A stretch of 64,000 bases of DNA from Longimicrobiales bacterium (GTDB lineage: Bacteria; Gemmatimonadota; Gemmatimonadetes; Longimicrobiales; Gaopeijiaceae). The stretch spans positions 320,001 through 384,000 of the forward strand of contig CBDCKN010000003.1 of assembly GCA_965218295.1 (NCBI GenBank), given 5' to 3'. Positions 42,641 through 64,000 of the stretch are shown in pieces. How positions within the stretch are numbered: position 1 is the first letter of the stretch; every line of letters begins with the position of its first letter. The notes beneath the pieces were generated by a model, which saw only the letters and a program-made list of their open reading frames with translations, searched no databases and was not told the origin of the DNA. The translations under genes were made by a program, and so were the position numbers.

Positions 42641-42792
42641 CGCGCGTGATCGGCCATGATTGGAGAAGGTGACGGGATGTATGGCACGAGTCCTCATGCA
42701 CGGCACGAGCCAATCGCACTGGCACAGCTCCCCACGGCCGCGGCGGAGTGCTTGGCGCCGAAGGGTCGGTGCGCGACGAGGCCCACAGGCAA

Positions 42793-46081: not shown

Positions 46082-46363
46082 GTGATCAAGAGCTTCAAGG
46101 ATCGAGACGCCGAGCGGCTCTTCCATCGTAGGCCGGTCAGGCGGCTGGGCACCGATGTCCAGCGTACCGCCCTTCGGAAGCTCCGCATGCTCGACGCTGC
46201 GACGACGCTCGATGACCTACGCATACCCCCGGCGAACCGACTGGAAAAGCTGAAGGGGGACCGAGCGGGGCAGCATAGCATCCGCGTCAACCGACGGTGG
46301 CGGATCTGCTTTCGGTGGCGTTCGAGCGACGCGCACGACGTTGAGATTGTCGATTACCATTGA
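46082..46363 (+). CDS. higB: HigB toxin (RelE/ParE superfamily)
   Basis: MIKSFKD, PPANRLEKLKGDRAGQHSIRVNRRWRICFRW, VEIVDYH. Confidence 0.93.
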   Translation: MIKSFKDRDAERLFHRRPVRRLGTDVQRTALRKLRMLDAATTLDDLRIPPANRLEKLKGDRAGQHSIRVNRRWRICFRWRSSDAHDVEIVDYH

Positions 46364-46372
46364 GGGAATGCC

Positions 46373-46684
46373 ATGGCCACGACGACGCTAACGCCAATCC
46401 ACCCTGGTGAGGTCCTGCTTGAGGAGTTTCTCGAGCCTATGGGCATCAGCCAGTATCGTTTGGCGAAGGACATCAGTGTATCTCCACGCCGCATCAATGA
46501 GATCGTGCATGGCAAGCGCGCCGTGACGGCCGACACGGCACTCCGGTTATCCCGATACTTCGGAACGTCGGACAAGTTCTGGCTCAATCTCCAGACGGGT
46601 TATGATCTCGATGTCGAACGCGATCGGCTTGGAGACCGACTGGAAGCCGAGGTCCTACCCCGCGCTGCTCGGGATCAACTTTGA
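46373..46684 (+). CDS. higA: HigA antitoxin; last codons replaced by the IS30 end
   Basis: PIHPGEVLLEEFL, RRINEIVHGKRAVTADTALRL, FWLNLQ; original end VLPRAV-TAA lies at 52163-52170. Confidence 0.93.
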   Translation: MATTTLTPIHPGEVLLEEFLEPMGISQYRLAKDISVSPRRINEIVHGKRAVTADTALRLSRYFGTSDKFWLNLQTGYDLDVERDRLGDRLEAEVLPRAARDQL

Positions 46685-46956
46685 AGTGCAACAGGGGCTA
46701 GGCTTTTGAGTTGAGTTCATAACAATCCTTGGGGGTGAGGAAGCCGAGTCGTTTACGAGGTCGGTTGTTGAGTTTGTGAGCGATGCGGTTGCAAGCATGC
46801 TGGGTGATGTGAGCCATGCTGGTACGCTTCGGCAGATACTGACGGATCAGGCCGTTCGTGTTCCGGAACCTGTCAACGCCAGTGAGACACTCTTGGAAAT
46901 CAATTAGAGAGCAATCTCCTGTGTAGTGAGGGATGGGGTGGGAGGATTGATCCAGA

Positions 46957-48187
46957 TGTACAGAGATGGTAATGACCTGACAGTTGGCCCTCGCCGGAGC
47001 TGTGTCTAGGCTGCCTTCGTCTTAGCCTCCTCCTTCCTGGCCTTTGCGGCCTTCCTGGCGTCGGTGAGACCGGCCTTGAAGACCTGATAGGGCGTGCGGC
47101 CCTCCATGGCTCGACCGCGGTGCGGCCGCTTCCGGTTGTAGGTCTCCAGATACGCCTCGAGGTCCTGCTGCATCTCCTCGACGGTCTCGTACCAGGTGGT
47201 GCGGCCCTTCACCCTCAAGTGCTCGTCGAGGAGCGTGCGGTGGAAGCGCTCGATGAAGCCGTTGGACTGGGGCCTGCCCACCTTCGTCGTGCGGTGCTCG
47301 ATGTCCTCGAGCTGAAGGAACAGCTCATATGGGTGACGGTCCGGACGGCCGCAGAACTCGCGGCCGTTGTCGCTGAGCACGGTCTTCACCCGGACCCGGT
47401 GCTCATCGAAGAACGGCAACACGTCGTTATTCATCACCTGCACCGCCGTGAGCGGGAGCTTGCTCGTGTAGAGCCGGCCCCAGGCGTAGCGGCTGAAGCA
47501 ATCGAGCACGGTCTGCAGGTACACCTTGCCGACCCCCTTCAGCGTTCCGACGAAGAACGTGTCCACGGCGACGAGGTCGCCCGGGTAATGGACTTCGATG
47601 TGGCGCTCCCGGAACTCGGGACTGAAGCGCTCCAGCAGCTCGATCTGCTCGTCGGTCAGCTTCAGCTTCCGTTCCCTGGCCGTCTCTTCGAGCCTGAGCA
47701 GCCGTTCGTGCTTCGTGGTGAGGCCATGCCGGCTCCACACGCCCCGTACGCCTCCTGAGCTCACCTGGATCCCTCCGAGCAGCAACTCGTCCGCGACCCG
47801 CTGAGCTCCGTGCGTCGGAGCCTCCAAGGCGTGGGCCAAGACCGCCTGCTCAATCTCTTCACTCACCCGGTTCGGGTGCGGTCCCTTCGGCCCCGGAAGC
47901 TGGTCGATCAGCCCCTCGGCCCCGTAAAGCTGGAAGTTCCTCCTGATCTCGTAGAACTGCTGCCGGCTGTAGCCCACGATCTTGCACGCCTTGCTCACGT
48001 TGCCGAGCTCCTGGGCCAACTGTAGCAGGCTCAGCTTGCGGCGCGCTATCTTCTCCCCCTGGACGGTGGTCATCTTCTCTCCCGTGCTAAGTGAGTGACT
48101 TCGACATCTCTCAATTAGCTCCGGCGAGGGCGGCTGGCCACCGTCCTCTCTCGTGGTCAACTGTCAGGTGAATACCGTCTCAGCACA
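46957..48187 (-). mobile_element. IS481-family element type A, copy 1 (1231 bp)
   Basis: TGT...ACA TIRs (TGTACAGAGATGGTAATGACCTGACAGTTG / TGTGCTGAGACGGTATTCACCTGACAGTTG); 7-bp TSD ATCCAGA. Confidence 0.92.
47006..48073 (-). CDS. IS481 family transposase
   Basis: GNVSKACKIVGYSRQQFY, DTFFVGTLKGVG, SDNGREFCG, NGFIERFHRT. Confidence 0.92.
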   Translation of the reverse strand: MTTVQGEKIARRKLSLLQLAQELGNVSKACKIVGYSRQQFYEIRRNFQLYGAEGLIDQLPGPKGPHPNRVSEEIEQAVLAHALEAPTHGAQRVADELLLGGIQVSSGGVRGVWSRHGLTTKHERLLRLEETARERKLKLTDEQIELLERFSPEFRERHIEVHYPGDLVAVDTFFVGTLKGVGKVYLQTVLDCFSRYAWGRLYTSKLPLTAVQVMNNDVLPFFDEHRVRVKTVLSDNGREFCGRPDRHPYELFLQLEDIEHRTTKVGRPQSNGFIERFHRTLLDEHLRVKGRTTWYETVEEMQQDLEAYLETYNRKRPHRGRAMEGRTPYQVFKAGLTDARKAAKARKEEAKTKAA

Positions 48188-49144
48188 ATCCAGACGGCCT
48201 CCGGGAGTGGTTTAGGCTTCGGCTCACCGGAGACGAAGCGCTCGGGATGAGCGGCCCATGCCTCACGGAGCACGGCCTTCCTGCAGGCGATGATCCGATC
48301 GGCGTGACCGAAGTGGACCTGTTCGGGGGTCAGCATCGAGATGCCGCCATGGCGGTGCTCGGCATTATACCAACGGAAGAACGAGCGACAGAAGGTCTTG
48401 GCTTGCCCCTGATCCCCGAACCGGCCGGGAAACGAGGGATGGTACTTCAAGGTCTTGAACTGAGCCTCGGAGAACGGATTGTCATCCGAGACCTGGGGTC
48501 GGCCCAACGAGCGGGTCACGCCGAGATCGGCGAGTAGTTGAGCCGTGCATTGGCTCGTCATCGGAGCCCTCGATCGGAATGCAGGGTCAGGAGGTGGGGC
48601 TGGACGCCATGCTTCAAGCAACTCTGCTGGATCAGCCGGCTGGCCAGGGCAGAGTTCTCCCGATCCGCCACCATCCATCCCACGACGTAGCGGCTGAAGA
48701 TGTCCAGGATCACGTAGAGGTAGAAGTAACTCCACTTCTTCGGCCCCAGCAGCCGGGTGATATCCCAGGACCAGACCTGGTTCGGGCCCCTCGCCATCAA
48801 CTCGGGTTTCTGGTATTTGGGATGACTCCGCTGCGCTCGACGCTCCTGAACCGGCACCTGGGAAGCCAGAACGCGATACATCGTACGCTCGCTGCACAGG
48901 TAGACGTCCTCGTCGAGCAGCGTCGCCACCACCTCGGCTGGGGACCGGTCCACGAACCGCTCCGAACACAGCGTGTCGAAGACCTTGTCTCGTTCCTTCT
49001 CGCTTAAGGCCCGGGCGGGGGTCGGGCGGGGCTGCTGATGCCCGGTCGATGGCCTCCGACGACGGTAGAACGTGGCTCGCGGCACCCTGAGCGCATCGCA
49101 CGCGGGCTTCACCCCTACGTGCTTGGCTAGCTCCTGGGTCGCCT

Positions 49145-49594
49145 TCATGAGTTCGTCCCGTCCTCGAGGCTCAATCCCAGCAGCCCTGCAACTTTTCCCT
49201 GGACGTCGATGATCAAGTGCGCCTTCTGGAGCTCCTTCTCGAGGCGAGTGTTCTCGCGCTCCAGCTTGCGCACCTTCTCCTCCAGCGGATTGCGCTCGCG
49301 CTTACGGCCTCGTTTCTTCGACAGCGCTTTCAGGGACCCGCTATGCGCCGCCTTGCGCCATGTCGTCAGGTGCGACGAGTACAAGCCCTCCCGCCGTAGG
49401 AGTCGGCCAACCTCTCCGGGCTCCGTGCACCGGTCCGCTTCTTCGACGATCCGCAGCTTGTACGACGGAGCGAACCGCCGGCGCAGCGGCCTATCTACCA
49501 CCTCCGAGTCCGCAGGAGCTGCCGCGCTTCGCTTACCGTCCCAGGTTGGTGGGGCTATTCCATTCTCTTTCATTCTCTCTCGGTGTCTCAGCAT
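49145..49594 (-). CDS. IS3-like OrfA
   Basis: RRRFAPSYKLRIV, LLRREGLYSSHLTTWR, leucine zipper. Confidence 0.85.
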   Translation of the reverse strand: MLRHRERMKENGIAPPTWDGKRSAAAPADSEVVDRPLRRRFAPSYKLRIVEEADRCTEPGEVGRLLRREGLYSSHLTTWRKAAHSGSLKALSKKRGRKRERNPLEEKVRKLERENTRLEKELQKAHLIIDVQGKVAGLLGLSLEDGTNS

Positions 49595-50293
49595 CCTCGG
49601 TTTCTCTGCCTTCGCCCTACTCTAATTCCTTAGCTGCTCCGTGTCTCACGTAAGTTGGCAGAGAGGGTTCTCGCTGGTCCCCCTTTCCCAAGAGTGGTAG
49701 GGGGTGGCGAAGTAGAATTTCGATCCGGTTTCTGCTTCGATCCCTCGCCCCATAGCCGTGGAACTCAGTTCCGTTGTCGGCCGTGATGGTGTGAGTGGGG
49801 CGAGCGGCAGTCTTGATCAGACGAACGGCTCGACGGTTCGTAGCCTCGACGGTACGAGCCTCGAGCTTGCCGATCATCACGTAGCCCGTCTTATGATCGA
49901 CGAAGGTGAGGACGCAGTGCTTGTCGGAGCTGGTACCGATCACGGTATCGGCTTCGAGGTGGCCGACTCGGCTTCGGTTCTGTGCACCAGCTGGGCGCTC
50001 AGATATCGGCCGTTTGCCGGCCAACCGACCTCGGGAATCATAGGATCCGTACCGTTTTCGGCGTTGCTTGGGCGAACAGTGCAGATGCAGATACAGGCGG
50101 CCACCGCGCTTTCGGTCGCGCCAGATGTGGCGGTAGATGGTCTCGTGGCTGATCGAGAGCCGAGCCTTGCGCCGTAACCAGCCTGCGGCTTGCTCAGGGC
50201 TCCACTGTTGCCTGAGGCACGCCTCCACCATTCGCCAGTCCGATGCACCGAAGCGGAGCCTGTCAACGCCAGTGAGACACTCTTGGAAATCAA

Positions 50294-51301
50294 TTAGAGA
50301 GCAATCTCCTGTGTCGTGAGGGAGGGGGTTGGAGGATTGATCCAGACGGCCTCCGGGAGCGGTTTGGGCTTCGGCTCACCGGAGACGAAGCGGTCGGGAT
50401 GAGCGGCCCAGGCCTCGCGTAGCACAGCCTCCCTGCCGGCGATGACCTGATCGGCGTGACCGAAGTGGACCTGTTCGGGGGTCAGCATCGAGATGCCGCC
50501 ATGGCGGTGCTCGGCATTGTACCAGCGGAAGAACGAGCGACAGAACATTTTGGCCTGGCCCTGATCCTCGAACCGTCCAGGAAACGAGGGATGGTACTTC
50601 AAGGTCTTGAACTGGGCCTCGGAGAACGGATTGTCATCCGACACCTGAGGTCGGCTCAGCGAGCGGGTCACCCCGAGATCGGCGAGGAGCTGAGCCGTGC
50701 ATTGGCTCGTCATCGGAGCTCCTCGATCCGAGTGCAAGGTCAGGACCTGGGGCTGGACGCCATGCTTCAGGCAACTCTGCTGGATCAGGCGCCCGGCCAA
50801 GGCCGAGTTCTCCCGATCCGCCACCATCCATCCCACGATGTAGCGGCTGAAGATGTCCATGATGACGTAGAGGTAGAAGTAGCTCCACTTCCTCGGCCCC
50901 AGCAGCCGTGTGATATCCCAGGACCAGACCTGGCCCGGGCCCGTCGCCATCAACTCGGGTTTCTGGTATTCGGGATGACTCCGCTGCGCTCGGCGCTCTC
51001 GAACTGGCACTTGGGAGGCCAGAACGCGATACATCGTACGTTCGCTGCACAGGTAGACGTCTTCGTCGAGCAGGGTCGCCACAACCTCGGCCGGGGACCG
51101 GTCCACGAATCGCTCCGAACACAGCGTGTCGAAGACCTTGTCTCGTTCCTTCTCGCTCAAGGCCCGGGCTGGGGTCGGGCGGGGCTGCTGATGCCCGGTC
51201 GATGGCCTCCGACGACGATAGAACGTGGCTCGGGCGACCCTGAGCGCATCGCACGCGGGCTTTACCCCTACGTACGTGGCCAGCGCCTCGGCCGCCTTCA
51301 C
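50294..51301 (-). CDS. IS3-like OrfB (DDE integrase core)
   Basis: WSWDIT, DIFSRYIVGW, HSDRG, DNPFSEAQFKTLK. Confidence 0.88.
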   Translation of the reverse strand: MKAAEALATYVGVKPACDALRVARATFYRRRRPSTGHQQPRPTPARALSEKERDKVFDTLCSERFVDRSPAEVVATLLDEDVYLCSERTMYRVLASQVPVRERRAQRSHPEYQKPELMATGPGQVWSWDITRLLGPRKWSYFYLYVIMDIFSRYIVGWMVADRENSALAGRLIQQSCLKHGVQPQVLTLHSDRGAPMTSQCTAQLLADLGVTRSLSRPQVSDDNPFSEAQFKTLKYHPSFPGRFEDQGQAKMFCRSFFRWYNAEHRHGGISMLTPEQVHFGHADQVIAGREAVLREAWAAHPDRFVSGEPKPKPLPEAVWINPPTPSLTTQEIAL

Positions 51302-51750
51302 GAGTTCGTCCCGTCCTCGAGGCTCAATCCCAGCAGCCCTGCAACTTTTCCCTGGACGTCGATGATCAGGCGCGCCTTCTCGAGTTCCTTCTCCAGGCGA
51401 GTGTTCTCGCGCTCCAGCTTGCGCACTTTCCCCTCCAGCGGATTCCGTTCGCTCGGCTTTCGACCTCGTCTCTTCGACAGCACTCTCAGCGACCCACTCC
51501 GCACCGCCTTGCGCCATGTCGTCAGGTGCGACGAGTACAAGCCCTCCCGTCGCAGGAGTCGCCCTACCTTCTCCCGGCTCCGTGCACCGGTCCGCTTCTT
51601 CGACGACCCGCAGCTTGTACGACGGACTAAACCGTCGGCGCGTCGGCTTATCTACCACCTCCGGTCCGGAGCAGCTGCCGCGCTTCGCTTACCCTCCCAG
51701 GTTAGTGGGGCGATTCCATTCTCTTCCATTCTCTCTCGGTGTCCCAGCAT
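51298..51750 (-). pseudogene. IS3-like OrfA with a 1-bp insertion near 51570
   Basis: Homologous to 49145..49594 but split across two frames. Confidence 0.75.
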
Positions 51751-52164
51751 CCTCGGTTTCTCTGCCTTCGCCCTACTCTAATTCTTTACTCGTTCCGTGT
51801 CTCACCTAAGTTGGCAGAGAGGGAAGCGCTCATTGCGGCGCGATCTGCCTCGTCTCCACCGGGCGTAGTCATCGGCCAGGTCCGGTCGATAGGCCCGGCC
51901 CTGACGATCCTTCGAGTTGCGGCGCACCTCACGGCTGATCGTACTTCGATGTCGGCCCAGTGCTCGAGCGATCGCAGCTTGGTTGCATCCTTGTTTTCTG
52001 AGCGCAGAGAGCGCATATCGCTCACCAGAGGTGAGCTGGCGATACCTGTTCATGAACTTCCTCCTTTTCGTCGAGAAGGAAGGTCTAGGGCGTCCCAGCT
52101 CGCCTCAACTTCTTTGTGGAGTTCGGTCGGGTGGTTTGTTGCACTTACTATATGAATCCAAGCT

Positions 52165-52242
52165 GTATAACAAGCGATTGCTGCAGTCGCGGTAGGCATC
52201 AGGGTCGCGCGCTTCGCTTGCGGTCACCATTGTTGTCGCGCA
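52165..52242 (+). repeat. attC of the higBA cassette, left part
   Basis: GTATAAC AAGCGATTGCTGCAGTCGCG...; pairs with 58970-58993 to give an imperfect palindrome of about 100 bp. Confidence 0.8.
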
Positions 52243-52646
52243 CCTATAAAGCGGACCCGGTCAATAGGACGCACGCCACCTAGGGCCTGCGCGAGCAGGC
52301 CATCGTAGGTGTTCTTCAGATCCTTCAGCATCCCCAAGTCTCCTGCGGCGTGATGTTGAGAAGTGGTTGGATCACGCGACCGATCGAAGGCGAGTCTTGT
52401 CAGGGACTCGAGCACCTATTCGGGGTTCGGCCTCTGTAGCGTGGCACGTCCCATCCCTCTCTGCCAACTTACGTGAGACACAGAGCAGCTAAGGAATTAG
52501 AGTAGGGCGAAGGCAGAGAAACCGAGGATGCTGAGACACCGAGAGAGAATGAAAGAGAATGGAATAGCCCCACCCCTCTCTGCCAACTTACGTGAGACAC
52601 GGAGCAGCTAAGGAATTAGAGTAGGGCGAAGGCAGAGAAACCGAGG

Positions 52647-53096
52647 ATGCTGAGACACCGAGAGAGAATGAAAGAGAATGGAATAGCCCCACCAACCTGG
52701 GACGGTAAGCGAAGCGCGGCAGCTCCTGCGGACTCGGAGGTGGTAGATAGGCCGCTGCGCCGGCGGTTCGCTCCGTCGTACAAGCTGCGGATCGTCGAAG
52801 AAGCGGACCGGTGCACGGAGCCCGGAGAGGTTGGCCGACTCCTACGGCGGGAGGGCTTGTACTCGTCGCACCTGACGACATGGCGCAAGGCGGCGCATAG
52901 CGGGTCCCTGAAAGCGCTGTCGAAGAAACGAGGCCGTAAGCGCGAGCGCAATCCGCTGGAGGAGAAGGTGCGCAAGCTGGAGCGCGAGAACACTCGCCTC
53001 GAGAAGGAGCTCCAGAAGGCGCACTTGATCATCGACGTCCAGGGAAAAGTTGCAGGGCTGCTGGGATTGAGCCTCGAGGACGGGACGAACTCATGA
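52647..53096 (+). CDS. IS3-like OrfA
   Basis: Same protein as 49145..49594; G-GGA-AAA slippery heptamer at 53042. Confidence 0.87.
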   Translation: MLRHRERMKENGIAPPTWDGKRSAAAPADSEVVDRPLRRRFAPSYKLRIVEEADRCTEPGEVGRLLRREGLYSSHLTTWRKAAHSGSLKALSKKRGRKRERNPLEEKVRKLERENTRLEKELQKAHLIIDVQGKVAGLLGLSLEDGTNS

Positions 53097-54100
53097 AGGC
53101 GACCCAGGAGCTAGCCAAGCACGTAGGGGTGAAGCCCGCGTGCGATGCGCTCAGGGTGCCGCGAGCCACGTTCTACCGTCGTCGGAGTGCATCGACCGGG
53201 CATCAGCAGCCCCGCCCGACCCCCGCCCGGGCCTTAAGCGAGAAGGAACGAGACAAGGTCTTCGACACGCTGTGTTCGGAGCGGTTCGTGGACCGGTCCC
53301 CAGCCGAGGTGGTGGCGACGCTGCTCGACGAGGACGTCTACCTGTGCAGCGAGCGTACGATGTATCGCGTTCTGGCTTCCCAGGTGCCGGTTCAGGAGCG
53401 TCGAGCGCAGCGGAGTCATCCCAAATACCAGAAGCCCGAGTTGATGGCGAGGGGCCCGAACCAGGTCTGGTCCTGGGATATCACCCGGCTGCTGGGGCCG
53501 AAGAAGTGGAGTTACTTCTACCTCTACGTGATCCTGGACATCTTCAGCCGCTACGTCGTGGGATGGATGGTGGCGGATCGGGAGAACTCTGCCCTGGCCA
53601 GCCGGCTGATCCAGCAGAGTTGCTTGAAGCATGGCGTCCAGCCCCACCTCCTGACCCTGCATTCCGATCGAGGGGCTCCGATGACGAGCCAATGCACGGC
53701 TCAACTACTCGCCGATCTCGGCGTGACCCGCTCGTTGGGCCGACCCCAGGTCTCGGATGACAATCCGTTCTCCGAGGCTCAGTTCAAGACCTTGAAGTAC
53801 CATCCCTCGTTTCCCGGCCGGTTCGGGGATCAGGGGCAAGCCAAGACCTTCTGTCGCTCGTTCTTCCGTTGGTATAATGCCGAGCACCGCCATGGCGGCA
53901 TCTCGATGCTGACCCCCGAACAGGTCCACTTCGGTCACGCCGATCGGATCATCGCCTGCAGGAAGGCCGTGCTCCGTGAGGCATGGGCCGCTCATCCCGA
54001 GCGCTTCGTCTCCGGTGAGCCGAAGCCTAAACCACTCCCGGAGGCCGTCTGGATCAATCCTCCCACCCCATCCCTCACTACACAGGAGATTGCTCTCTAA
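53093..54100 (+). CDS. IS3-like OrfB transposase
   Basis: DDE motifs WSWDIT, HSDRG, SEAQFKTLK. Confidence 0.9.
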   Translation: MKATQELAKHVGVKPACDALRVPRATFYRRRSASTGHQQPRPTPARALSEKERDKVFDTLCSERFVDRSPAEVVATLLDEDVYLCSERTMYRVLASQVPVQERRAQRSHPKYQKPELMARGPNQVWSWDITRLLGPKKWSYFYLYVILDIFSRYVVGWMVADRENSALASRLIQQSCLKHGVQPHLLTLHSDRGAPMTSQCTAQLLADLGVTRSLGRPQVSDDNPFSEAQFKTLKYHPSFPGRFGDQGQAKTFCRSFFRWYNAEHRHGGISMLTPEQVHFGHADRIIACRKAVLREAWAAHPERFVSGEPKPKPLPEAVWINPPTPSLTTQEIAL

Positions 54101-54140
54101 TTGATTTCCAAGAGTGTCTCACTGGCGTTGACAGGTTCCG

Positions 54141-54483
54141 GCTGCGCCGGCGGTTCGCTCCGTCGTACAAGCTGCGGATCGTCGAAGAAGCGGACCGGTG
54201 CACGGAGCCCGGAGAGGTTGGCCGACTCCTACGGCGGGAGGGCTTGTACTCGTCGCACCTGACGACATGGCGCAAGGCGGCGCATAGCGGGTCCCTGAAA
54301 GCGCTGTCGAAGAAACGAGGCCGTAAGCGCGAGCGCAATCCGCTGGAGGAGAAGGTGCGCAAGCTGGAGCGCGAGAACACTCGCCTCGAAAAGGAGCTCC
54401 AGAAGGCGCACTTGATCATCGACGTCCAGGGAAAAGTTGCAGGGCTGCTGGGATTGAGCCTCGAGGACGGGACGAACTCATGA
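54141..54483 (+). pseudogene. 5'-truncated IS3-like OrfA of copy C
   Basis: Resumes mid-orfA directly after the right end of copy D. Confidence 0.8.
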
Positions 54484-55487: not shown

Positions 55488-55621
55488 TTGATTTCCAAGA
55501 GTGTCTCACTGGCGTTGACAGGTTCCGCATGATCTCCTGTGCGAGGTGGGGGGCTCAGTCAGCAGAAGAAGGTCGTCGAACGACATGCGCGACCAGGAGC
55601 TCACCCCGTGGATCCTGAACC

Positions 55622-56169
55622 TCAAGCGACATGGCGCCACGCCTCACCTGTGCGAAGCATCGCGTGCACCGCACGAGCGAGCTTGCGTGCGGTGGCGATG
55701 CGAGCGACACGCCAATCGAGCCGATCCTTGAGCCGGTCGTAGTACTGGCTGAGCCAGCTATCGGGAGATCGGCCATGATGGATGACGACGGTCTGGACGA
55801 AGGCATTACGGAGCCAGCGGTTGGCACCGGCCGGGATCGGCCCGTAGCGGACGGTCATCCCGGAACGAGAGGAACGAGGAGCGAGTCCTGCATAGCTCAC
55901 GAGGTGCTTCGGGCCTCGGAAGCGCTCGATCGGCAGGGTCTCGGTGGCGATCAAGAGGGCGCGGTAGGGTCCGATGCCGGGAACCGTGCGAAGGAGTTCG
56001 ACGGCCGGGATCTCGCGGCCGACCTCGAGGATGCGACGGTCGAGCGACTTGATCATGTCCTTGAGTTCGTCTGCGATGCGCTCATGCGTGCAGATGAGTC
56101 GTTGCTGCTCGGGCCCCATGCGGGGCCAGGCGATGGTATGGACCCAGCCACGTCCCTCGGCGGTGAGCA
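55622..56169 (-). pseudogene. C-terminal half of the IS110 recombinase
   Basis: Near-identical to the 3' half of 57859..58878. Confidence 0.85.
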
Positions 56170-56346
56170 CCTATAAAGCGGACCCGGTCAATAGGACGCA
56201 CGCCACCTAGGGCCTGCGCGAGCAGGCCATCGTAGGTGTTCCTCAGATCCTTCAGCATCCCCAAGTCTCCTGCGGCGTGATGTTGAGAAGTGGTTGGATC
56301 ACGCGACCGATCGAAGGCGAGTCTTGTCAGGGACTCGAGCACCTAT

Positions 56347-57724
56347 GAGGTTGGGTCAATAGGTGTGTAAACGTATTAGGCGGCGTTCTTCCGCTGTTGG
56401 TGTGAGACGGGCTTTCCGTCTTCGAACTTTCTTCCTTCAAATACGTCCTTGAGGAGGTGAGGAGCGTCGAGCCTTCGGAACCGCTTCTCAGCCACCAAGA
56501 GCAACTTCCAGATTAGCGCCGTAGCGCTCTCGACCCGCTTGAACCGCTTCGCTGCTGTCGTCCTGAGCCGTACCGCAGCGAACGGGCTCTCGACCACGTT
56601 CGTCGTGCGTAGATGCTTCCAGTGGTCCTCGGGGAAGTCGTAGAACGCTACCATCCGCTCCCAGTCGTCCTCGAGTACGTCCACTGCTTTCGGATACCAC
56701 GGCCTATAGCGTCGGGCGAACACCTCGCGGGCCTTCAGGGCCTCGGCCCGGCTCGGTGCGTAGACCACGGCCCGGAGAAGATCCTTCGCCTCGCCCTGCT
56801 CCCGCTGAGGTAGTCGGTCCAGCACGTTCCTCATCTTGTGGTTCCAGCACCGTTGCTCGCCCGCCTCAGGCCATACCTGCCGTACTGCGCCCCAGATCGC
56901 CGCGTTGCCGTCCGCCATCAAAAGCCGGGGCGCCTCGATGCCGCGTGCCTTCAGATCCCGCAACACCTCCGACCAGGACTCGACCGACTCTCGGTAGCCC
57001 GATCTCAGGGCCAACACCTCCTTCGTCCCGTCTCGCATCGCGCCCAGCACCACCAGTAGCGCCGCCTTGTCCCGCTCGAGCCCTGCCTTCACGTAGATCC
57101 CGTCCGCCCATACGTAGACGACCTCACGGCCCTCCAGGCGACGCTGGCTCCATTCCTCGAACTCCGCCGTCCATCCCGCCCGCAGTCTCCGAATCGAAGA
57201 CTTCGACAGCGGTGCCCCCTCGCCTAGCAGTCCCCGCATCGCCAGCTCGAAGTCTCCCTCTGCCAGTCCGTGCAGATACAGCTCCGGAAGCAGAGCGCCC
57301 AGCTCCTTCGTCCGCCTCGCGAACAACGGCAGCACCCGACTCTCGAACCGCTCCTCGACGCCCCGAACCCGAGGGCGTCGGAGTGTGATCGTGCCCGAGC
57401 TCATCGCCAGCCGCCTCGGCTTGCCGTATCCGTTGCGGTAGCCCTCGGTCGCGTCCACCACCCTCCTGCGCTCTGACTTCTCTCGCCCTAGCAACTCCGT
57501 GACTTCCTCCTCCAAGATCTGTTGAATGAACTCCTGCGCCTTCTCCCGAACCACTTCTTCCAGAACTTCCCACACGGGCGTCCTGGACTCACCCTCGGGT
57601 CCCACCGTATTCTTCCTCACGAGGCGTCGTTCCTTTCCCCCGGGCTGTCACCCGGAGTTCGCTGGTTATTACTCAGCGGAAAGGTACGTCGCCTCTCTTT
57701 TTACACACCCTTTGATCCTAGCTC
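56347..57724 (-). mobile_element. IS256-family element, copy 2 (1378 bp)
   Basis: Same TIRs as copy 1; 8-bp TSD GCACCTAT. Confidence 0.93.
56376..57620 (-). CDS. IS256 family transposase
   Basis: Two amino-acid differences from 24090..25334. Confidence 0.93.
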   Translation of the reverse strand: MRKNTVGPEGESRTPVWEVLEEVVREKAQEFIQQILEEEVTELLGREKSERRRVVDATEGYRNGYGKPRRLAMSSGTITLRRPRVRGVEERFESRVLPLFARRTKELGALLPELYLHGLAEGDFELAMRGLLGEGAPLSKSSIRRLRAGWTAEFEEWSQRRLEGREVVYVWADGIYVKAGLERDKAALLVVLGAMRDGTKEVLALRSGYRESVESWSEVLRDLKARGIEAPRLLMADGNAAIWGAVRQVWPEAGEQRCWNHKMRNVLDRLPQREQGEAKDLLRAVVYAPSRAEALKAREVFARRYRPWYPKAVDVLEDDWERMVAFYDFPEDHWKHLRTTNVVESPFAAVRLRTTAAKRFKRVESATALIWKLLLVAEKRFRRLDAPHLLKDVFEGRKFEDGKPVSHQQRKNAA

Positions 57725-57858
57725 GCACCTATTCGGGGTTCGGCCTCTGTAGCGTGGCACGTCCCATGATCTCCTGTGTGAGGTGGGGGGCTCAGTCAGC
57801 AGAAGAAGGTCGTCGAACGACATGCGCGACCAGGAGCTCACCCCGTGGATCCTGAACC

Positions 57859-58878
57859 TCAAGCGACATGGCGCCACGCCTCACCTGTGCGAAGCATCGC
57901 GTGCACCGCACGAGCGAGCTTGCGTGCGGTGGCGATGCGAGCGACACGCCAATCGAGCCGATCCTTGAGCCGGTCGTAGTACTGGCTGAGCCAGCTATCG
58001 GGAGATCGGCCATGATGGATGACGACGGTCTGGACGAAGGCATTACGGAGCCAGCGGTTGGCACCGGCCGGGATCGGCCCGTAGCGGACGGTCATCCCGG
58101 AACGAGAGGAACGAGGAGCGAGTCCTGCATAGCTCACGAGGTGCTTCGGGCCTCGGAAGCGCTCGATCGGCAGGGTCTCGGTGGCGATCAAGAGGGCGCG
58201 GTAGGGTCCGATGCCGGGAACCGTGCGAAGGAGTTCGACGGCCGGGATCTCGCGGCCGACCTCGAGGATGCGACGGTCGAGCGACTTGATCATGTCCTTG
58301 AGTTCGTCTGCGATGCGCTCATGCGTGCAGATGAGTCGTTGCTGCTCGGGCCCCATGCGGGGCCAGGCGATGGTATGGACCCAGCTACGTCCCTCGGCGG
58401 TGAGCAACCGACCGCGGGGCAGGCAGAAGCCCAGAGAGTGGAGCTCGGCATGAATGCGCGACGCCGAGGAGGTCCGCATCCGGACGAGTCGGGCCCGGTG
58501 CCGGACGAGGGTGGCCTGCTCGCGTTGGCTGATGGGTTTGCAGTAGACCTCAGGGATGAGGCGCACGAGTTGCATGCGAGCGAGCAGCGTGGCGTCGATC
58601 GCATCGTTCTTGTAGTTGGCCTCGGCGATCGCACGCAGCTTCTTCGCGTGGGCGAGCACGAAGCGACAATCCGGTCCGTTGAGCAACTCGTATAGCCAGG
58701 GCCAGGACGGACTCGTCTCGACGACGACCTCGAGCGGCCGATAGGCATTCAGCAGCTCAACGAGCCGGTCGGACTCGGTGTTGCGGATGCGGAGCGGCTT
58801 TTGGACGAACGCTCCGTCATTGCTCACGACCGCGACGACGAGGTACGTTGCGTGAGCATCGATTCCTGCGACATACAT
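57859..58878 (-). CDS. IS110 family DEDD recombinase (IS1111 type)
   Basis: AGIDAH, VVET, KNDAIDA, LRTVPGIG, SYAGLAPRSSRSG, ATARKLAR; GGAGG RBS. Confidence 0.92.
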   Translation of the reverse strand: MYVAGIDAHATYLVVAVVSNDGAFVQKPLRIRNTESDRLVELLNAYRPLEVVVETSPSWPWLYELLNGPDCRFVLAHAKKLRAIAEANYKNDAIDATLLARMQLVRLIPEVYCKPISQREQATLVRHRARLVRMRTSSASRIHAELHSLGFCLPRGRLLTAEGRSWVHTIAWPRMGPEQQRLICTHERIADELKDMIKSLDRRILEVGREIPAVELLRTVPGIGPYRALLIATETLPIERFRGPKHLVSYAGLAPRSSRSGMTVRYGPIPAGANRWLRNAFVQTVVIHHGRSPDSWLSQYYDRLKDRLDWRVARIATARKLARAVHAMLRTGEAWRHVA

Positions 58879-58969
58879 GATGGCCTCCTGGTGGTTGGCA
58901 GCCGCAGGTTACTTGGGGAAGTGCCAGCGTAGTGCGCCGGCCGTTGGGAGGCCATCCGCTTTATAAGGT

Positions 58970-58993
58970 CAGCAGAATCGCGAGACGTTAGGA
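58970..58993 (+). repeat. attC of the higBA cassette, right part (L' and R' GTTAGGA)
   Basis: CAGCAGAATCGCGAGACGTTAGGA is complementary to the left arm at 52165-52190. Confidence 0.8.
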
Positions 58994-59027
58994 AGCACTT
59001 ATCCCACCGAAAATCTGGCAGCACTAC

Positions 59028-60254
59028 GTGAAGAAGTTGCGGAGCAGAAACCCGTGGGGATTTAGGGTCGCCTTCTGGGCTTGCCTGACGCTTGTGGCAT
59101 GCGCCCCGAGTGGCGAACCGGACCGAAGGGGTGGTGACGATGCCAACCAAGCAGCGGCGTATGGGCACCCGGATAGCGTACTCTTCTGGACCCCGGAGCA
59201 GCAGCTCGCCGGGTTCCCGAACTACGACCGAATCTTCGAAACCCGAGCGATTCCGGCCGGCTCTGACCCCTTTCCGCTCCCTCGGCGGTTGCGAGATTTT
59301 AGTGGGCTCAGCTACAAGGTCGAAGAAAGAAGCTACGATCTTGAGGCTTTCTTAGAGCATAATCGGGTCGCGGGTCTCCTCGTTCTCAAAGAAGGCTCGA
59401 TCGTCCTGGAGGAGTACCGACTCGGCCACAGACCTGAGACGCTGTGGGTCTCGTACTCGGTGGCGAAGTCCGTCGTTTCATTGCTCATAGGCGCCGCGAT
59501 CCGCGACGGCTACATCAACGGCATCGGCGAACCCGTTACGCAGTATCTCCCGGTCCTGCGCGGCACTTCATACGAGGGCGTGACGATCGGCCATGTCCTA
59601 CAGATGGCCTCGGGCGTGGAGTGGAACGAGGACTACACTGATCCCACCGCCGACGTCAGCCTCGAAATCGGCATGACCAACCAAGAGCGGCTGAGCTTTC
59701 TGAGCAGCAAGAAGCGCCTAGTCGACCCAGGTGTTCGCTTCAACTACAACACCGGTGAGACGCACCTCGCAGGAGCGGTACTGGGGGCCGCGATCGGAAA
59801 CCACCTGGCGACATACCTTGGCTCGAAGATCTGGCAGCCGTTCGGTATGGAGCACGACGCCAACTGGAGGCTCGTTGAGCCGGGAGGCGCGGAGCACGGC
59901 GGTTGCTGCATCAGCGCGACGCTCCGTGACTACGGCCGACTCGGCATGTTTGCACTTCGAGCGGGTACACTACGCAATGGCGACCAGACCCTCCCTCCGG
60001 GCTGGATGGACGCGTCCAAGGCCCCGTCCGCAGGGAATCCAGGCTATGGCTACCTCTGGTGGCTCGGCGACGGTCAGTCGTACGCGGCAAGAGGAATCTT
60101 CGGGCAAGGGATCTTCATCGATCCCTCGGACAACGTCGTGATCGTCACGCACAGCGCGTGGCCCGTCCCGACCGGGACGGAGTTCTCAGCGCACAGAGAC
60201 GCACTGGTCGCTGCGCTGAAACAAACCCTGAATGAGACGGGGGCCGACGAGTAG
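59028..60254 (+). CDS. Serine hydrolase, beta-lactamase/NylB-like family, probable lipoprotein; gene cassette
   Basis: SVAK (SxxK), LQMASG, FNYNTG, DYGRLG, YGYLWW, ARGIFGQ; LVAC lipobox. Confidence 0.88.
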   Translation: MKKLRSRNPWGFRVAFWACLTLVACAPSGEPDRRGGDDANQAAAYGHPDSVLFWTPEQQLAGFPNYDRIFETRAIPAGSDPFPLPRRLRDFSGLSYKVEERSYDLEAFLEHNRVAGLLVLKEGSIVLEEYRLGHRPETLWVSYSVAKSVVSLLIGAAIRDGYINGIGEPVTQYLPVLRGTSYEGVTIGHVLQMASGVEWNEDYTDPTADVSLEIGMTNQERLSFLSSKKRLVDPGVRFNYNTGETHLAGAVLGAAIGNHLATYLGSKIWQPFGMEHDANWRLVEPGGAEHGGCCISATLRDYGRLGMFALRAGTLRNGDQTLPPGWMDASKAPSAGNPGYGYLWWLGDGQSYAARGIFGQGIFIDPSDNVVIVTHSAWPVPTGTEFSAHRDALVAALKQTLNETGADE

Positions 60255-60274
60255 TGTTCGGACCCTGCGTGCTT

Positions 60275-61383
60275 CTCGGGATCAACTTTGAAGTGCAACA
60301 GGGGCTAGGCTTTTGAGTTGAGTTCATAACAATCCTTGGGGGTGAGGAAGCCGAGTCGTTTACGAGGTCGGTTGTTGAGTTTGTGAGCGATGCGGTTGCA
60401 AGCATGCTGGGTGATGTGAGCCATGCTGGTACGCTTCGGCAGATACTGACGGATCAGGCCGTTCGTGTTCTCGCTGGTCCCCCTTTCCCAAGAGTGGTAG
60501 GGGGTGGCGAAGTAGAATTTCGATCCGGTTTCTGCTTCGATCGCCCCATAGCCGTGGAACTCAGTTCCGTTGTCGGCCGTGATGGTGTGAGTGGGGCGAG
60601 CGGCAGTCTTGATCAGACGAACGGCTCGACGGTTCGTAGCCTCGACGGTACGAGCCTCGAGCTTGCCGATCATCACGTAGCCCGTCTTACGATCGACGAA
60701 GGTGAGGACGCAGTGCTTGTCGGAGCTGGTACCGATCACGGTATCGGCTTCGAGGTGGCCGACTCGGCTTCGGTTCTGTGCACCAGCTGGGCGCTCAGAT
60801 ATCGGCCGTTTGCCGGCCAACCGACCTCGGGAATCATAGGATCCGTACCGTTTTCGGCGTTGCTTGGGCGAACAGCGCAGATGCAGATACAGGCGGCCAC
60901 CGCGCTTTCGGTCGCGCCAGATGTGGCGGTAGATGGTCTCGTGGCTGATCGAGAGCCGAGCCTTGCGCCGTAACCAGCCTGCGGCTTGCTCAGGGCTCCA
61001 CTGTTGCCTGAGGCACGCCTCCACCATTCGCCAGTCCGATGCACCGAAGCGCTCATTGCGGCGCGATCTGCCTCGTCTCCACCGGGCGTAGTCATCGGCC
61101 AGGTCCGGTCGATAGGCCCGGCCCTGACGATCCTTCGAGTTGCGGCGCACCTCACGGCTGATCGTACTTCGATGTCGGCCCAGTGCTCGAGCGATCGCAG
61201 CTTGGTTGCATCCTTGTTTTCTGAGCGCAGAGAGCGCATATCGCTCACCAGAGGTGAGCTGGCGATACCCTGTTCATGAACTTCCTCCTTTTCGTCGAGA
61301 AGGAAGGTCTAGGGCGTCCCAGCTCGCCTCAACTTCTTTGTGGAGTTCGGTCGGGTGGTTTGTTGCACTTACTATATGAATCC
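60275..61383 (-). mobile_element. IS30-family element, copy 2 (last 3 bp of one end lost)
   Basis: Same TIRs as copy 1; abuts the IS481 type B end. Confidence 0.88.
60305..61277 (-). CDS. IS30 family transposase with a +1 frameshift near 61269
   Basis: WSPEQ, SHETIY, HLEADTV, DNGTEF, WERGTSENTNGLIRQYLPK; one extra C relative to copy 1. Confidence 0.87.
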
Positions 61384-61802
61384 TGAACAGCGCACCTGAT
61401 GGTTGACACAATGGTGCCAGCTGATGGTTAACAGATTGGGTTACGTCCTGTGTTGCCGTGGGTGTCGAAAATGACGAAGAGTTCTTCGTCAAACCACCCG
61501 AGGGTAATGGGTCCGAAGTAGATTTGCCACAGAGCGGGACCGATGGGTTCGAGCCCGATGAACTCGTTGCCGAGCGCCGAGCTGATGTTGATCCAACGCG
61601 AGTGCCAGCGGATGCCTCCGTTCGTAGAGACCTTACGGACCTCGAAGTGCTCGGGGTATTCGATAGGCGGAAGGACATCGGGGTAGGCTCTAAGAGCCGA
61701 TCGGTAGACTGAATCGGGCGTCGCATCGTCGAGCGCCTCATGCGGCCGGATGGAATTGAAGGTGCGGCGGAAGTGGTTGAAGTGACGCTGCTGGGCACGG
61801 AG

Positions 61803-63033
61803 TGTACAGAGATGGTAATGACCTGACAGTTGGCCCTCGCCGGAGCTGTGTCTAGGCTGCCTTCGTCTTAGCCTCCTCCTTCCTGGCCTTTGCGGCCTTC
61901 CTGGCGTCGGTGAGACCGGCCTTGAAGACCTGATAGGGCGTGCGGCCCTCCATGGCTCGACCGCGGTGCGGCCGCTTCCGGTTGTAGGTCTCCAGATACG
62001 CCTCGAGGTCCTGCTGCATCTCCTCGACGGTCTCGTACCAGGTGGTGCGGCCCTTCACCCTCAAGTGCTCGTCGAGGAGCGTGCGGTGGAAGCGCTCGAT
62101 GAAGCCGTTGGACTGGGGCCTGCCCACCTTCGTCGTGCGGTGCTCGATGTCCTCGAGCTGAAGGAACAGCTCATATGGGTGACGGTCCGGACGGCCGCAG
62201 AACTCGCGGCCGTTGTCGCTGAGCACGGTCTTCACCCGGACCCGGTGCTCATCGAAGAACGGCAACACGTCGTTATTCATCACCTGCACCGCCGTGAGCG
62301 GGAGCTTGCTCGTGTAGAGCCGGCCCCAGGCGTAGCGGCTGAAGCAATCGAGCACGGTCTGCAGGTACACCTTGCCGACCCCCTTCAGCGTTCCGACGAA
62401 GAACGTGTCCACGGCGACGAGGTCGCCCGGGTAATGGACTTCGATGTGGCGCTCCCGGAACTCGGGACTGAAGCGCTCCAGCAGCTCGATCTGCTCGTCG
62501 GTCAGCTTCAGCTTCCGTTCCCTGGCCGTCTCTTCGAGCCTGAGCAGCCGTTCGTGCTTCGTGGTGAGGCCATGCCGGCTCCACACGCCCCGTACGCCTC
62601 CTGAGCTCACCTGGATCCCTCCGAGCAGCAACTCGTCCGCGACCCGCTGAGCTCCGTGCGTCGGAGCCTCCAAGGCGTGGGCCAAGACCGCCTGCTCAAT
62701 CTCTTCACTCACCCGGTTCGGGTGCGGTCCCTTCGGCCCCGGAAGCTGGTCGATCAGCCCCTCGGCCCCGTAAAGCTGGAAGTTCCTCCTGATCTCGTAG
62801 AACTGCTGCCGGCTGTAGCCCACGATCTTGCACGCCTTGCTCACGTTGCCGAGCTCCTGGGCCAACTGTAGCAGGCTCAGCTTGCGGCGCGCTATCTTCT
62901 CCCCCTGGACGGTGGTCATCTTCTCTCCCGTGCTAAGTGAGTGACTTCGACATCTCTCAATTAGCTCCGGCGAGGGCGGCTGGCCACCGTCCTCTCTCGT
63001 GGTCAACTGTCAGGTGAATACCGTCTCAGCACA
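61803..63033 (-). mobile_element. IS481-family element type A, copy 2 (1231 bp)
   Basis: TGT...ACA TIRs; imperfect 7-bp TSD CACGGAG/CCCGGAG. Confidence 0.92.
61852..62919 (-). CDS. IS481 family transposase
   Basis: Same protein as 47006..48073. Confidence 0.92.
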   Translation of the reverse strand: MTTVQGEKIARRKLSLLQLAQELGNVSKACKIVGYSRQQFYEIRRNFQLYGAEGLIDQLPGPKGPHPNRVSEEIEQAVLAHALEAPTHGAQRVADELLLGGIQVSSGGVRGVWSRHGLTTKHERLLRLEETARERKLKLTDEQIELLERFSPEFRERHIEVHYPGDLVAVDTFFVGTLKGVGKVYLQTVLDCFSRYAWGRLYTSKLPLTAVQVMNNDVLPFFDEHRVRVKTVLSDNGREFCGRPDRHPYELFLQLEDIEHRTTKVGRPQSNGFIERFHRTLLDEHLRVKGRTTWYETVEEMQQDLEAYLETYNRKRPHRGRAMEGRTPYQVFKAGLTDARKAAKARKEEAKTKAA

Positions 63034-63733
63034 CCCGGAGGTTGGCCTTCGGCGGCCGAGTGGCTTCGCGCTTGAGGGTTCGGTGCATGCGTTCGTGACG
63101 GCCATTCTGCTGCGGCTTACCAGGCTCGATGGTCTCAGGACGGATGCCGAGCCGGATCCACCAAGCGCTGAGGCGTGTGAGCCGAGCGAGGCCGATGGAA
63201 GCGAAGGGCGTGCCGTTGTCGGAGCGGATGACGGCGGGAACGCCGAACTCACGGAAGACCTTGATGAATACGGGCTTGGCGAGCTCGATCGACGTGGAGT
63301 ACAGCCCTCTGCACTCGAGCAGGAATCGGCTGAAACCGTCCTGGATGGTAAGGGGATAGCAGTAGCGGCCGTTGAGCATCTTGAACTGGCCTTTGAAGTC
63401 GACCGTCCAGACCGCATTGGGCTCGTCCATGGGGGTGAGTGGCTTACCGGGATGGCCCGGCTTACCGGAGCGTCGGCGCTTCTTCGTGATCAGGTCGTGA
63501 CGCTCGAAGATACGGTCGATCGTCCTGCGAGCTGGTGCCTCGCCGAACTTCTCAGCTGTGAGTTTACGGATCTTGCGTGATCCCCACCCGTAGCGCTGAC
63601 GCAGATCCACGACGTGTTCCACGACACCTTCCGCTACGGCATGCGGGCAGTGGTGGGGCCGGTGAGAGCGGTCGTGGAGTCCCTCGAATCCCTCCGCGAG
63701 GAACCGTGTCCACCACTTGTATCCGGCGGCCCT

Positions 63734-63795
63734 GCGCTCGCGCGCTGCGCACGCGGTCGGCATCTTGATCAGGCAGCAGAATCGTGAGACGTTAG
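63734..63795 (+). repeat. attC-like site, right half
   Basis: ...GCAGCAGAATCGTGAGACGTTAG; 37 bp identical to 42577-42613. Confidence 0.75.
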
Positions 63796-64000
63796 CAACT
63801 GTGTTGGAAACGGAGCTGATCGATGGGGATCGCTGGGTCCCACTTCCGACCGTCGCGGATCATGGCGTTGAGGATGATGAGCAGCTTCCTCATGCAGGCG
63901 ACGTGGGCCACCTTGGGAGACTTCCCGCGGTCGCGTAGCCGGCGATAGAACACCCGGATGACAGGGTTCCATTTCGAAGCGCTCAAGCTGCTCATGAAGA
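63792..64000 (-). CDS. IS110-group recombinase, C-terminal end (partial); different from 57859..58878
   Basis: NPVIRVFYRRL...GKSPKVAHVACMRKLLIILNAMIRDG; ends QHSC-stop at the element end. Confidence 0.85.
   Translation of the reverse strand, partial: FMSSLSASKWNPVIRVFYRRLRDRGKSPKVAHVACMRKLLIILNAMIRDGRKWDPAIPIDQLRFQHSC

Follow-up and report, generated by a model that had tools for sequence, protein, structure and literature searches.

The window analysed here is a 64,000-nucleotide stretch of a Longimicrobiales genome, the right part of which carries toxin-antitoxin genes, a cassette gene, remnants of two attC sites and three primary insertion sequences (ISs) – an IS30, an IS1111-type IS110 (IS110a) and an IS621-like IS110 (IS110b) – with further ISs nested inside them (Table 1). 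The three primary transposases are all encoded on the minus strand, antisense to the cassettes. A sequence-only reading of this DNA had spoken of three unrelated IS types, which is overstated, since the proteins of IS110a and IS110b share 26% identity when aligned and are distant homologues. Its placing of IS3-like, IS481 and IS256 copies inside the primary ISs agrees with the positions found here, as does its statement that the cassette genes are spared apart from the last higA codon. Five IS30-derived codons now stand in place of that codon, and the present C-terminus is PRAARDQL*; judging from the 3-bp duplication of IS30, the ancestral gene would have ended PRAV*. The serine hydrolase falls far under all class C beta-lactamase cut-offs, and an Rfam search of positions 42000-64000 gave no match.

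Table 1. Features in the right part of the window
Feature	Position	Strand	Remarks
higBA toxin-antitoxin genes	46082..46684	+	
IS30 copy 1	46668..52162	-	~1.1 kb unit split by two IS3-like insertions; right IR 46668-46692, left IR 52138-52162
Nested IS3-like element	46864..49666	-	IS481 element inside (46957-48187)
Nested IS3-like variant	50256..51822	-	91% identity to main type
attC 1, left part	52165..52242	+	R'' 52165-52171 (GTATAAC), L'' 52177-52184, loop, CA core 52241-52242
IS110a	52243..58971	-	IS1111-type; 1.4 kb unit with internal partial duplication and nested ISs
Nested IS3-like pieces	52455..55527	+	Partial, full, partial
Nested IS256	56347..57721	-	
Predicted IS110a target-guide loop	57797..57831	-	3' of transposase stop; guide-target covariation among relatives
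IS110a DEDD transposase	57859..58878	-	339 aa, open frame; NF033542
attC 1, right part	58972..58993	+	L' 58972-58978 (GCAGAAT), R' 58987-58993
Cassette gene, serine hydrolase	59028..60254	+	PF00144 family
IS30 copy 2	60275..61383	-	Last 3 bp of left IR gone; neither junction looks original
Truncated IS481, second type	61384..63735	-	Nested IS481 at 61803-63033
attC 2, right half only	63736..63795	+	L' 63776-63782, GTTAG 63791-63795, AG core 63794-63795
IS110b	63796..64000, on to C3:384968	-	IS621-like IS110, 1173 bp; 327-aa open frame

attC sites and insertion sequences at the locus

The attC sites have an R'' box (RYYYAAC), an R' box (GTTRRRY) and paired L''/L' arms. They were called with a rule devised for this analysis that was widened once, after it had missed an intact site on contig C1 (score 8.5, the right spacer range being too narrow), and recalibrated; the C1 site now scores 11 and folds. 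Rebuilt without its IS, attC 1 scores 10.5 and spans 101 bp, with an R'' one base off the consensus and a predicted arm pairing of 0.0 even when empty, and the IS-free allele of its junction is present in 4/4 public runs from 4 studies. There are 13 remnants of the attC family in the 3.57-Mb genome, putting the chance match of one exact base and orientation at ~2e-6 per insertion; the caller misses decayed sites, so some sites counted as off-target may be old attCs. No intI (TIGR02249) scores above cut-off in this 90.7% complete genome. The gene is present in both same-genus genomes, and in a relative (G584) the same attC family adjoins a full intI in an intact integron.

IS30 copy 1 is flanked by a CTG duplication (46665-46667 and 52163-52165), which together with its terminal IRs and DDE transposase assigns it to the IS30 family (the transposase of copy 2 scores 269 bits against NF033563, cut-off 80). 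It ends 2 bp before R'' of attC 1, and a third copy (C1:80243) has the same offset from the intact attC, such that 2/2 copies with an intact left end in this genome stand at the R'' offset; all three copies are broken. The claim that IS30 lies immediately 5' of R'' twice in the window is borne out for copy 1 only, the left arm of the attC of copy 2 being deleted. Copy 2 adjoins the truncated IS481 at 61384, and the deletion fuses that IS481 to the middle of attC 2; other sequencing runs carry on into IS481 sequence at position 63735. The other junction of copy 2 also seems to have been rearranged, as IS-free alleles depart from it at 60268, which is 6 bp short of the element.

IS110a ends directly before L', bearing out the description of an IS1111-type IS110 in the right arm beside that box, and 3/3 copies in this genome are at the L' edge. 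The IS1111 assignment follows from its DEDD transposase, its subterminal IRs of 10 bp (at 52246-52255 and 58955-58964, extended by 3 bp and 7 bp), and a 240-bp non-coding region downstream of the gene. In the predicted guide loop, one segment matches bases 5' of the core and the other bases 3' of it. IS110b starts right after GTTAG (insertion GTT-AG), in R' as the sequence-only reading had placed it, and is IS621-like in its DEDD recombinase, its CT core, its target guides and a predicted two-loop RNA region – a putative bridge RNA upstream of the gene, beyond the window end.

The nested ISs are without attC direction: none of 119 insertion points of IS3-like, IS256 and IS481 copies in this genome lies within 30 bp of an attC remnant, so that their pile-up is not directed by attC. 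The three primary ISs carry 4 insertions of these three abundant families in 10 kb (0.40/kb, versus 0.06/kb in other repeats), all 4 of them in this window only; for comparison, one non-attC IS481 had 2 nested insertions in 6 kb. Among other families, two copies are inserted directly in the C1 IS30 and one stands at the end of IS30 copy 2, and bigger repeat nests without attC also occur. The nested ISs would be a side effect of ISs multiplying in dispensable DNA.

Target preferences among relatives

A comparison of flanks among relatives and controls, the check proposed with the sequence-only reading, gives fixed, element-specific offsets at attC for all three elements. The outcome named there as counting against attC targeting – most other copies at non-attC sites, or random offsets – occurs in part for IS30: in six multi-copy genomes 11/33 readable sites are called attC (0/6 in one of them, G350), but the spacing between element and motif is non-random.

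We counted 54 distinct IS30 sites, leaving out 26/80 loci for lack of a left IR, a short or duplicate flank or, in 2 cases, failure of the IR pattern. TAAC stands at +6 in 39/54, as against 2 TAAC over all other offsets from 1 to 30, and 33/54 have an attC call of at least 9, compared with 6.7% of 3806 genomic TAAC. Near-identical copies in three genomes (G584, G585 and G527) are at the offset in 8/10 cases, and members of the clade in a Vibrio campbellii record in 10/14 and in a V. vulnificus record in 7/7 (4 distinct flanks); among more distant IS30-family copies 1/6 is at attC, and of the outgroup ISAs2 0/11 copies are at the attC offset. In a quick tree the sequences form one clade of 63 rows versus 9 outgroups (SH-aLRT 97), and the single-base register is kept across different attC families and at least 6 phyla.

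The target motif is one-sided, the opposite flank showing only a G beside the duplication, and it persists away from attC. A distal matrix trained on attC sites gives 1.71 for the 25 IS30 sites without TAAC and without a hairpin call (-3.14 +/- 0.74 when placed at other offsets), and sites within ordinary genes without a hairpin call still have both motifs in register. That copies outside attC keep the distal motif points to one-sided sequence readout and not to hairpin recognition, and IS30 is likely steered by a protein that recognises a bipartite DNA motif. It would read, on the left-end side only, a linear motif with a proximal part (T)AAC(A), from +6 to +10, and a distal part GC/CG-x-GAC, from about +21 to +27, for which attC left arms would be the best natural match, with look-alike sites also used; movement would be by copy-out/paste-in, as known for E. 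coli IS30. Mimicry of the IRs by the targets was considered and rejected, target-IR similarity being at background.

Alternatively, the IS30 clade could recognise attC through its folded bottom strand, or through IntI attached to that strand, with the distal motif incidental. Strict orientation and a one-sided motif would fit a strand-specific structure, bottom-strand insertion is reported for group IIC-attC introns (PMC3001079), and about half of the IS30 sites are full attCs (33/69). We nevertheless regard this as quite unlikely, given the register of both motifs at the gene-internal sites and the presence of IS30 copies at the motif in genomes with mostly non-attC sites.

For the two IS110 elements, guides and targets covary. 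Among IS110a relatives, 12/24 have R' at the expected distance, 5/29 loci without a readable junction having been left out, and several bear guides for other targets. Guide and target match at 87/100 and 63/75 bases versus 48.8 +/- 5.7 and 40.6 +/- 4.9 under permutation, counts that overstate significance because the relatives are not independent. No IS110a was found in viral contigs, and a sample of the phylum has matches in 2/300 other genomes. Among IS110b relatives of at least 70% identity, 28/30 have GTT before the core, and an attC call of at least 10 was obtained for 12/25, compared with 4/281 genomic CGTTAG and 1/29 distant relatives; 14/80 loci were left out before these counts. The left guide matches its own target at 66/80 bases (47.0 +/- 3.3 permuted) and the right guide at 46 (36.6 +/- 2.5), with the same overstatement of significance. 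A second full IS110b copy (C13) has a near-perfect guide match at a site that is not an attC, and elsewhere (L139) a single intact attC has IS30 on one side and IS110b on the other. From these sequence patterns, each element is likely steered by its own guide RNA: in both, a non-coding RNA would base-pair with the target through two guide segments, IS110a recombining at the 2-bp CA core at the L' edge and IS110b at the AG core in R'.

The same patterns bear on a further explanation, in which specificity is loose, selection purges other copies and inter-copy recombination spreads one attC-flanked configuration. The 3-bp duplication matches at 21/38 two-ended IS30 sites, so many flanks have been reshuffled, and a 2931-bp unit of IS30, IS110 and attC occurs twice in G584 at 99.8% identity. 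Such a process is very improbable in the face of a single-base register over different attC families and phyla, of guides that covary with their targets, and of abundant ISs of the same genome (0/119) and ISAs2 that are not at attC. The duplication in G584 was also considered as proof of cassette mobility by IntI and rejected, since the repeat has different genes on both sides.

Three IS lineages thus stand at a fixed attC base and orientation, and probably each evolved independently to read one conserved box; the RNAs, the protein readout and the activity of the elements we infer.

Occupancy and use of attC sites

The sequence-only reading took attC to be a safe-harbour landing pad, shared and divided among the elements, whose occupancy would freeze cassettes in place. 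The sparing of cassette genes and the three non-overlapping positions in the window fit a shared harbour, and in the intact integron of G584 9/16 attC left arms are occupied, IS30 being on 5/16 and a fourth IS110 lineage on 6. A partition is unsupported: the fourth lineage has its insertion point within the IS30 motif, 5 bp away from where IS30 inserts, and both elements are on 2 left arms versus 1.9 expected if independent. The different insertion positions follow from convergence, and an evolved partition is not needed.

Freezing is likewise unsupported. Neither IS30 nor IS110b separates the boxes, since the first inserts outside R'' and the second leaves GTT in place, and 4/5 attCs flanked by either kept a predicted arm pairing of 0.65-0.87. 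Only IS110a splits the attC hairpin, with arms at least 1.4 kb apart, and at split sites in two relatives predicted pairing dropped, in one from 0.83 to 0.50 and in the other from 0.52 to 0.01, in line with freezing. Folding is mixed overall, in that one site (L128) did not fold and 2/4 IS110a-split sites as well as attC 1 of the window were unfolded even when empty. The lack of an intI above cut-off in this genome also speaks against freezing, and overall we consider the divided and frozen landing pad unlikely. IS30 and IS110b likely leave attC usable, and IS110a alone likely blocks it, reversibly.

A wider proposal, which we advance only tentatively, is that at least four IS lineages target attC in this bacterial family, one per conserved box; that the IS30 clade consists of DDE elements working by protein alone, with single-base, one-orientation targeting via a 27-bp one-sided motif; and that attC stays usable with IS30 or the R'-targeting bridge recombinase in place, so that IntI would carry both between arrays inside cassettes.

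Comparison with known attC-targeting and related elements

As far as our literature search reached, attC targeting has been published only for the IS1111-attC group and for group IIC-attC introns, and none of the IS30, IS110a and IS110b lineages was found described in print. The locus would add three lineages to these, all on one attC family and one being an orientation-specific DDE transposase that includes named Vibrio elements. This bears on one-sided target reading by IS30 transposases, on the reprogramming of bridge and seek RNAs to integron boxes, and on whether cassettes carry such elements along or are blocked by them; annotation is affected as well, because the insertions split attC sites or move attC away from genes.

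The IS1111-attC group (ISPa21, ISPst6, ISKpn4, ISPa25) was reportedly described by Tetu and Holmes in 2008 and by Post and Hall in 2009. IS110a resembles it in its 7-bp/3-bp extended subterminal IRs, a downstream non-coding region with two putative guide segments, the absence of any duplication outside the core, and antisense insertion into an attC target. A transposase-bound seekRNA with two target-matching segments is known in the IS1111 family, where subterminal IRs are usually 11-13 bp (PMC11187229), compared with 10 bp in IS110a. According to PMC3001079 the described elements lie near the 5' end of attC motifs, whereas IS110a occupies the L' edge of the right arm, with sister elements inserted 3 bp further in. 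The best 40 of 2824 plasmid matches to IS110a have at most 35% identity, versus 86-90% shared by ISPst6, ISKpn4 and ISPa21, and none of these 40 is named as a member of the group. Group IIC-attC introns are likewise antisense at attC and part a gene from its site (PMC3001079), but are retroelements without homology to any of the three ISs; none was found among the ORFs scanned here.

IS110b matches IS621 and ISCro4 (PDB 8wt6 and 9t56; E 2e-35 and 1e-40) and shares with them a CT core (read on the strand of the element), a two-loop fold in the non-coding region upstream, and left and right target guides. IS621 targets REP elements (PMC11208160), whereas the guides of IS110b spell the integron core CGTT-AG-RY; about half of its close relatives are in called attCs and the rest in look-alikes or decayed sites.

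E. coli IS30 inserts into nearly palindromic hot spots or its own IRs with 2-bp duplications (PMC9333248). The clade described here shares NF033563, a length of ~1.1 kb, 25-bp IRs ending AAGTGC(A/G)AC and a short duplication, but makes 3-bp duplications, uses one orientation and has a one-sided two-part motif in place of a palindromic or own-IR target. Its nearest named members, by RefSeq product name, are ISVa6 and ISVvu6, and copies like these (58-59% identity) fall inside the clade and lie at the same attC offset.

Integron remnants and anatomy of the locus

The two integron sites of the window (attC 1 and attC 2), whose boxes R'', L'', L' and R' have the names and spacing of attC sites generally, belong to a genome of 3.57 Mb (G000; 65% GC) in which repeats account for 14% of bases; the window spans C3:320001-384000 of it. 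With a profile derived from six natural sequence stretches, 13 remnants of one attC family were recovered in G000, mostly decayed. No integron integrase exceeded the cut-off in this 90.7% complete genome, and one is present in 2/2 genomes of the same genus. Another remnant, lacking its left arm, lies at window positions 42557-42638 ahead of an unannotated 537-aa ORF (42748-44361) without a Pfam or NCBIfam match. Directly beyond the window, after IS110b, the genes at G000:C3 384990-387550 look cassette-like, with no attC called between them; we take their products to be a 260-aa unknown, a membrane protein, and glyoxalase-like and TIR-like proteins. Two large repeat nests with common flanks (G000 C13:526498-540068 and C3:230016-242434) look like one segmental duplication.

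Primary elements and cassette features (window positions unless a contig is given); the transposases of all three primary elements are antisense to the cassettes
Feature	Position	Orientation	Remark
higBA			followed by IS30 copy 1
IS30 copy 1	46668-52162	antisense to cassettes	duplication CTG
attC 1 R''	52165-52171		
attC 1 split point	after CA 52241-52242		split by IS110a
IS110a	52243-58971	antisense to cassettes	last base abuts L'
attC 1 L'	58972-58978		
attC 1 R'	58987-58993		
Serine-hydrolase cassette gene			between attC 1 and IS30 copy 2
IS30 copy 2	60275-61383	antisense to cassettes	
Truncated IS481 nest			between IS30 copy 2 and attC 2 right half
attC 2, right half	63736-63795		
IS110b		antisense to cassettes	inserted at AG of GTTAG, after attC 2 right half
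475-aa IS110 element (L362/L363/L365)	G584:C7 ~228-270 kb; G584:C3 ~129.5-131.3 kb		

Four public runs from four studies carry the serine-hydrolase cassette behind an unsplit attC, which fixes the IS110a junction. Because the IS-free alleles in these runs diverge from the window at 60268, the junction of IS30 copy 2 with the serine-hydrolase gene is probably secondary, and with the attC left arm also lost this copy counts neither way on targeting. The sequence-only reading, which had placed IS30 immediately 5' of R'' twice in the window, is therefore confirmed for copy 1 but not for copy 2; a third copy (C1:80243) has the same offset as copy 1 from an intact attC that is ~9% different from attC 1.

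Target sites of the IS30 clade

Sites were called as attC where AAC and GTT lie 40-150 bp apart with pairing arms, a rule with a background of 6.7% (score at least 9) and 1.4% (at least 10) at 3806 genomic TAAC sites. The closest named carriers of the window's IS30 are Gemmatimonadota, which makes its host probably a member of that phylum as well. Among 80 GTDB loci (56-80% identity), 54 distinct left-end flanks were readable. TAAC occurs at +6 in 39 of these flanks, as against 2 at every other offset from 1 to 30 combined, and 33/54 and 27/54 reach scores of at least 9 and 10. Hosts of these relatives include Gemmatimonadota, Verrucomicrobiota, Acidobacteriota, Pseudomonadota, Myxococcota and Chloroflexota. 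The offset fits in 8/10 copies, from three related genomes, whose left ends are 97-99% identical, and in 10/14 and 7/7 ISVa6/ISVvu6-like cases; it does not fit the pJM1 copy of this type, nor any of 11 ISAs2 copies. A quick tree places the relatives, ISVa6/ISVvu6-like elements included, in a single clade apart from nine outgroups (SH-aLRT 97). The fixed offset proposed earlier is supported as a single register repeated among relatives. Two counts speak against strict targeting: attC was called at only 11/33 readable sites in six multi-copy genomes, and matching duplications are kept at only 21/38 two-ended sites.

At 25/69 distinct IS30 sites, TAAC at +6 and a hairpin call are both absent. On a matrix of distal positions 20-28, trained on 33 attC sites, these 25 score 1.71 in register, compared with -3.14 +/- 0.74 (maximum -1.24) at 110 other offsets, and 13 of them have GAC or ACG at +23 to +25 (mean elsewhere 1.4). 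The opposite flank shows only a G adjoining the duplication, and the targets do not resemble the element's own IRs. From this pattern we infer that the clade reads a one-sided, two-part sequence to which attC left arms are the best match.

Two further loci bear on cassette arrays. The 'plasmid' record NZ_CP016323.1 (L203/L204) holds a Vibrio cassette array in which segments recur and ISVvu6-like elements are present seven times, and its DUF3265 ORFs appear to overlie attC repeats. In a related genome, a split intI lies beside four intact attCs of the window's family (L367; G527:C3:428000-440000), one carrying IS30 at the usual offset.

Predicted guide segments of the IS110-group elements

IS110a (IS1111-type) and IS110b (IS621-like) share 26% protein identity. 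All three IS110a copies in G000 end at the same CA of attC-family sequence, two of these sites being decayed. Relatives occur in 23/313 genomes of the family, and in 12/24 readable junctions GTT lies 13-17 bp past the core, which places the insertion either at the edge of L' or 3 bp deeper. Two segments directly 3' of the stop codon agree with the flanks of the element that carries them: the first at 87/100 bases against 48.8 +/- 5.7 (distinct guides, 48/55 against 25.4 +/- 4.6), the second at 63/75 against 40.6 +/- 4.9. Relatives with other guides occupy other targets. In a sister IS1111-type lineage (L296, L297, L299, L301, L302, L311, L316, L318) the guides are offset by 3 bases and insertion is within L' rather than at its edge, a natural reprogramming inside one attC family. 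L293, L294 and L315 share an alternative guide pair and similar non-attC flanks; their target may be another repeat family. At 55528-56346 IS110a is partly duplicated, the second copy beginning at CA 56168-56169 within the gene of the first, with a poor guide match; the remainder of the first copy is missing.

IS110b is related to ISCro4 and IS621, and the region upstream of its gene is predicted to fold into two loops. Among 80 metagenome loci, GTT precedes the core in 28/30 junctions of close relatives (at least 70% identity). Scores of at least 10 were reached by 12/25 close relatives with enough flank, compared with 4/281 genomic CGTTAG sites and 1/29 distant relatives. Between the left guide and the target of the same element, 66/80 bases agree (permuted 47.0 +/- 3.3; 0/20000), and the right guide beyond GTT scores 46 (permuted 36.6 +/- 2.5). 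A second full copy in G000 has a near-perfect guide match at a non-attC site, as expected of sequence guidance. In the IS110b relatives L135 and L145 the left guide ends in AT rather than CT, and the junction core of L145 is also AT, possibly a natural core change. A left-end fragment (L012; G000:C15:425884-426087) keeps the predicted bridge RNA ~100 bp from a tRNA-like gene.

Probable convergence on attC and comparison with described elements

Three lineages do converge on attC within a single family of sites, and each offers a testable targeting mechanism. The proposal that the elements partition attC is not supported. One intact attC (L139) is flanked by IS30 and IS110b. In the related genome G584, where attCs of the window's family are arrayed next to a full intI, IS30 occupies 5/16 left arms and a fourth element, a 475-aa IS110-family transposase, lies at CT of R'' in 6/16 attCs; both occupy 2/16 sites (1.9 expected), so that elements with overlapping positions coexist, and convergence on conserved attC boxes explains the offsets. 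The fourth element, not found in G000, has one further copy on another G584 contig, is stacked between IS30 and TAAC three times, and has a target-matching segment upstream of its gene.

Freezing of cassettes is likewise not borne out: IS30 lands outside R'', IS110b leaves GTT intact, and IS110a alone splits one arm from the other. Predictions of folding are mixed, leaning toward disruption by IS110a only. IS110b falls downstream of the integron crossover position. Nor is the pile-up of nested elements attC-directed, as 0/119 insertion points in G000 (54 IS3-like, 43 IS256, 22 IS481) are at attC.

A full-text literature search, at the level of titles and abstract openings, returned no description of attC targeting by the IS30 clade or an IS621-like element. 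The comparison drew on PMC11187229, PMC11208160, PMC9333248, PMC3001079, PMC11616780, PMC12444791 and PMC8876359; PMC11208160 mentions attC twice, one of the mentions being a reference entry. IS110a shows the IS1111 features given in PMC11187229: IRs that are subterminal, extensions of 7 bp and 3 bp, and a non-coding region downstream of the gene. It lies at the right-arm L' edge, whereas the IS1111-attC elements are described in PMC3001079 as inserting close to the 5' end of attC. Best plasmid matches to IS110a reach at most 35% identity. In its predicted mode of action IS110a resembles the IS1111-attC group, but it probably lies outside that group. The IS30 clade, with its one-sided motif, differs from E. 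coli IS30, which makes 2-bp duplications and targets its own IRs or hot spots that are nearly palindromic (PMC9333248).
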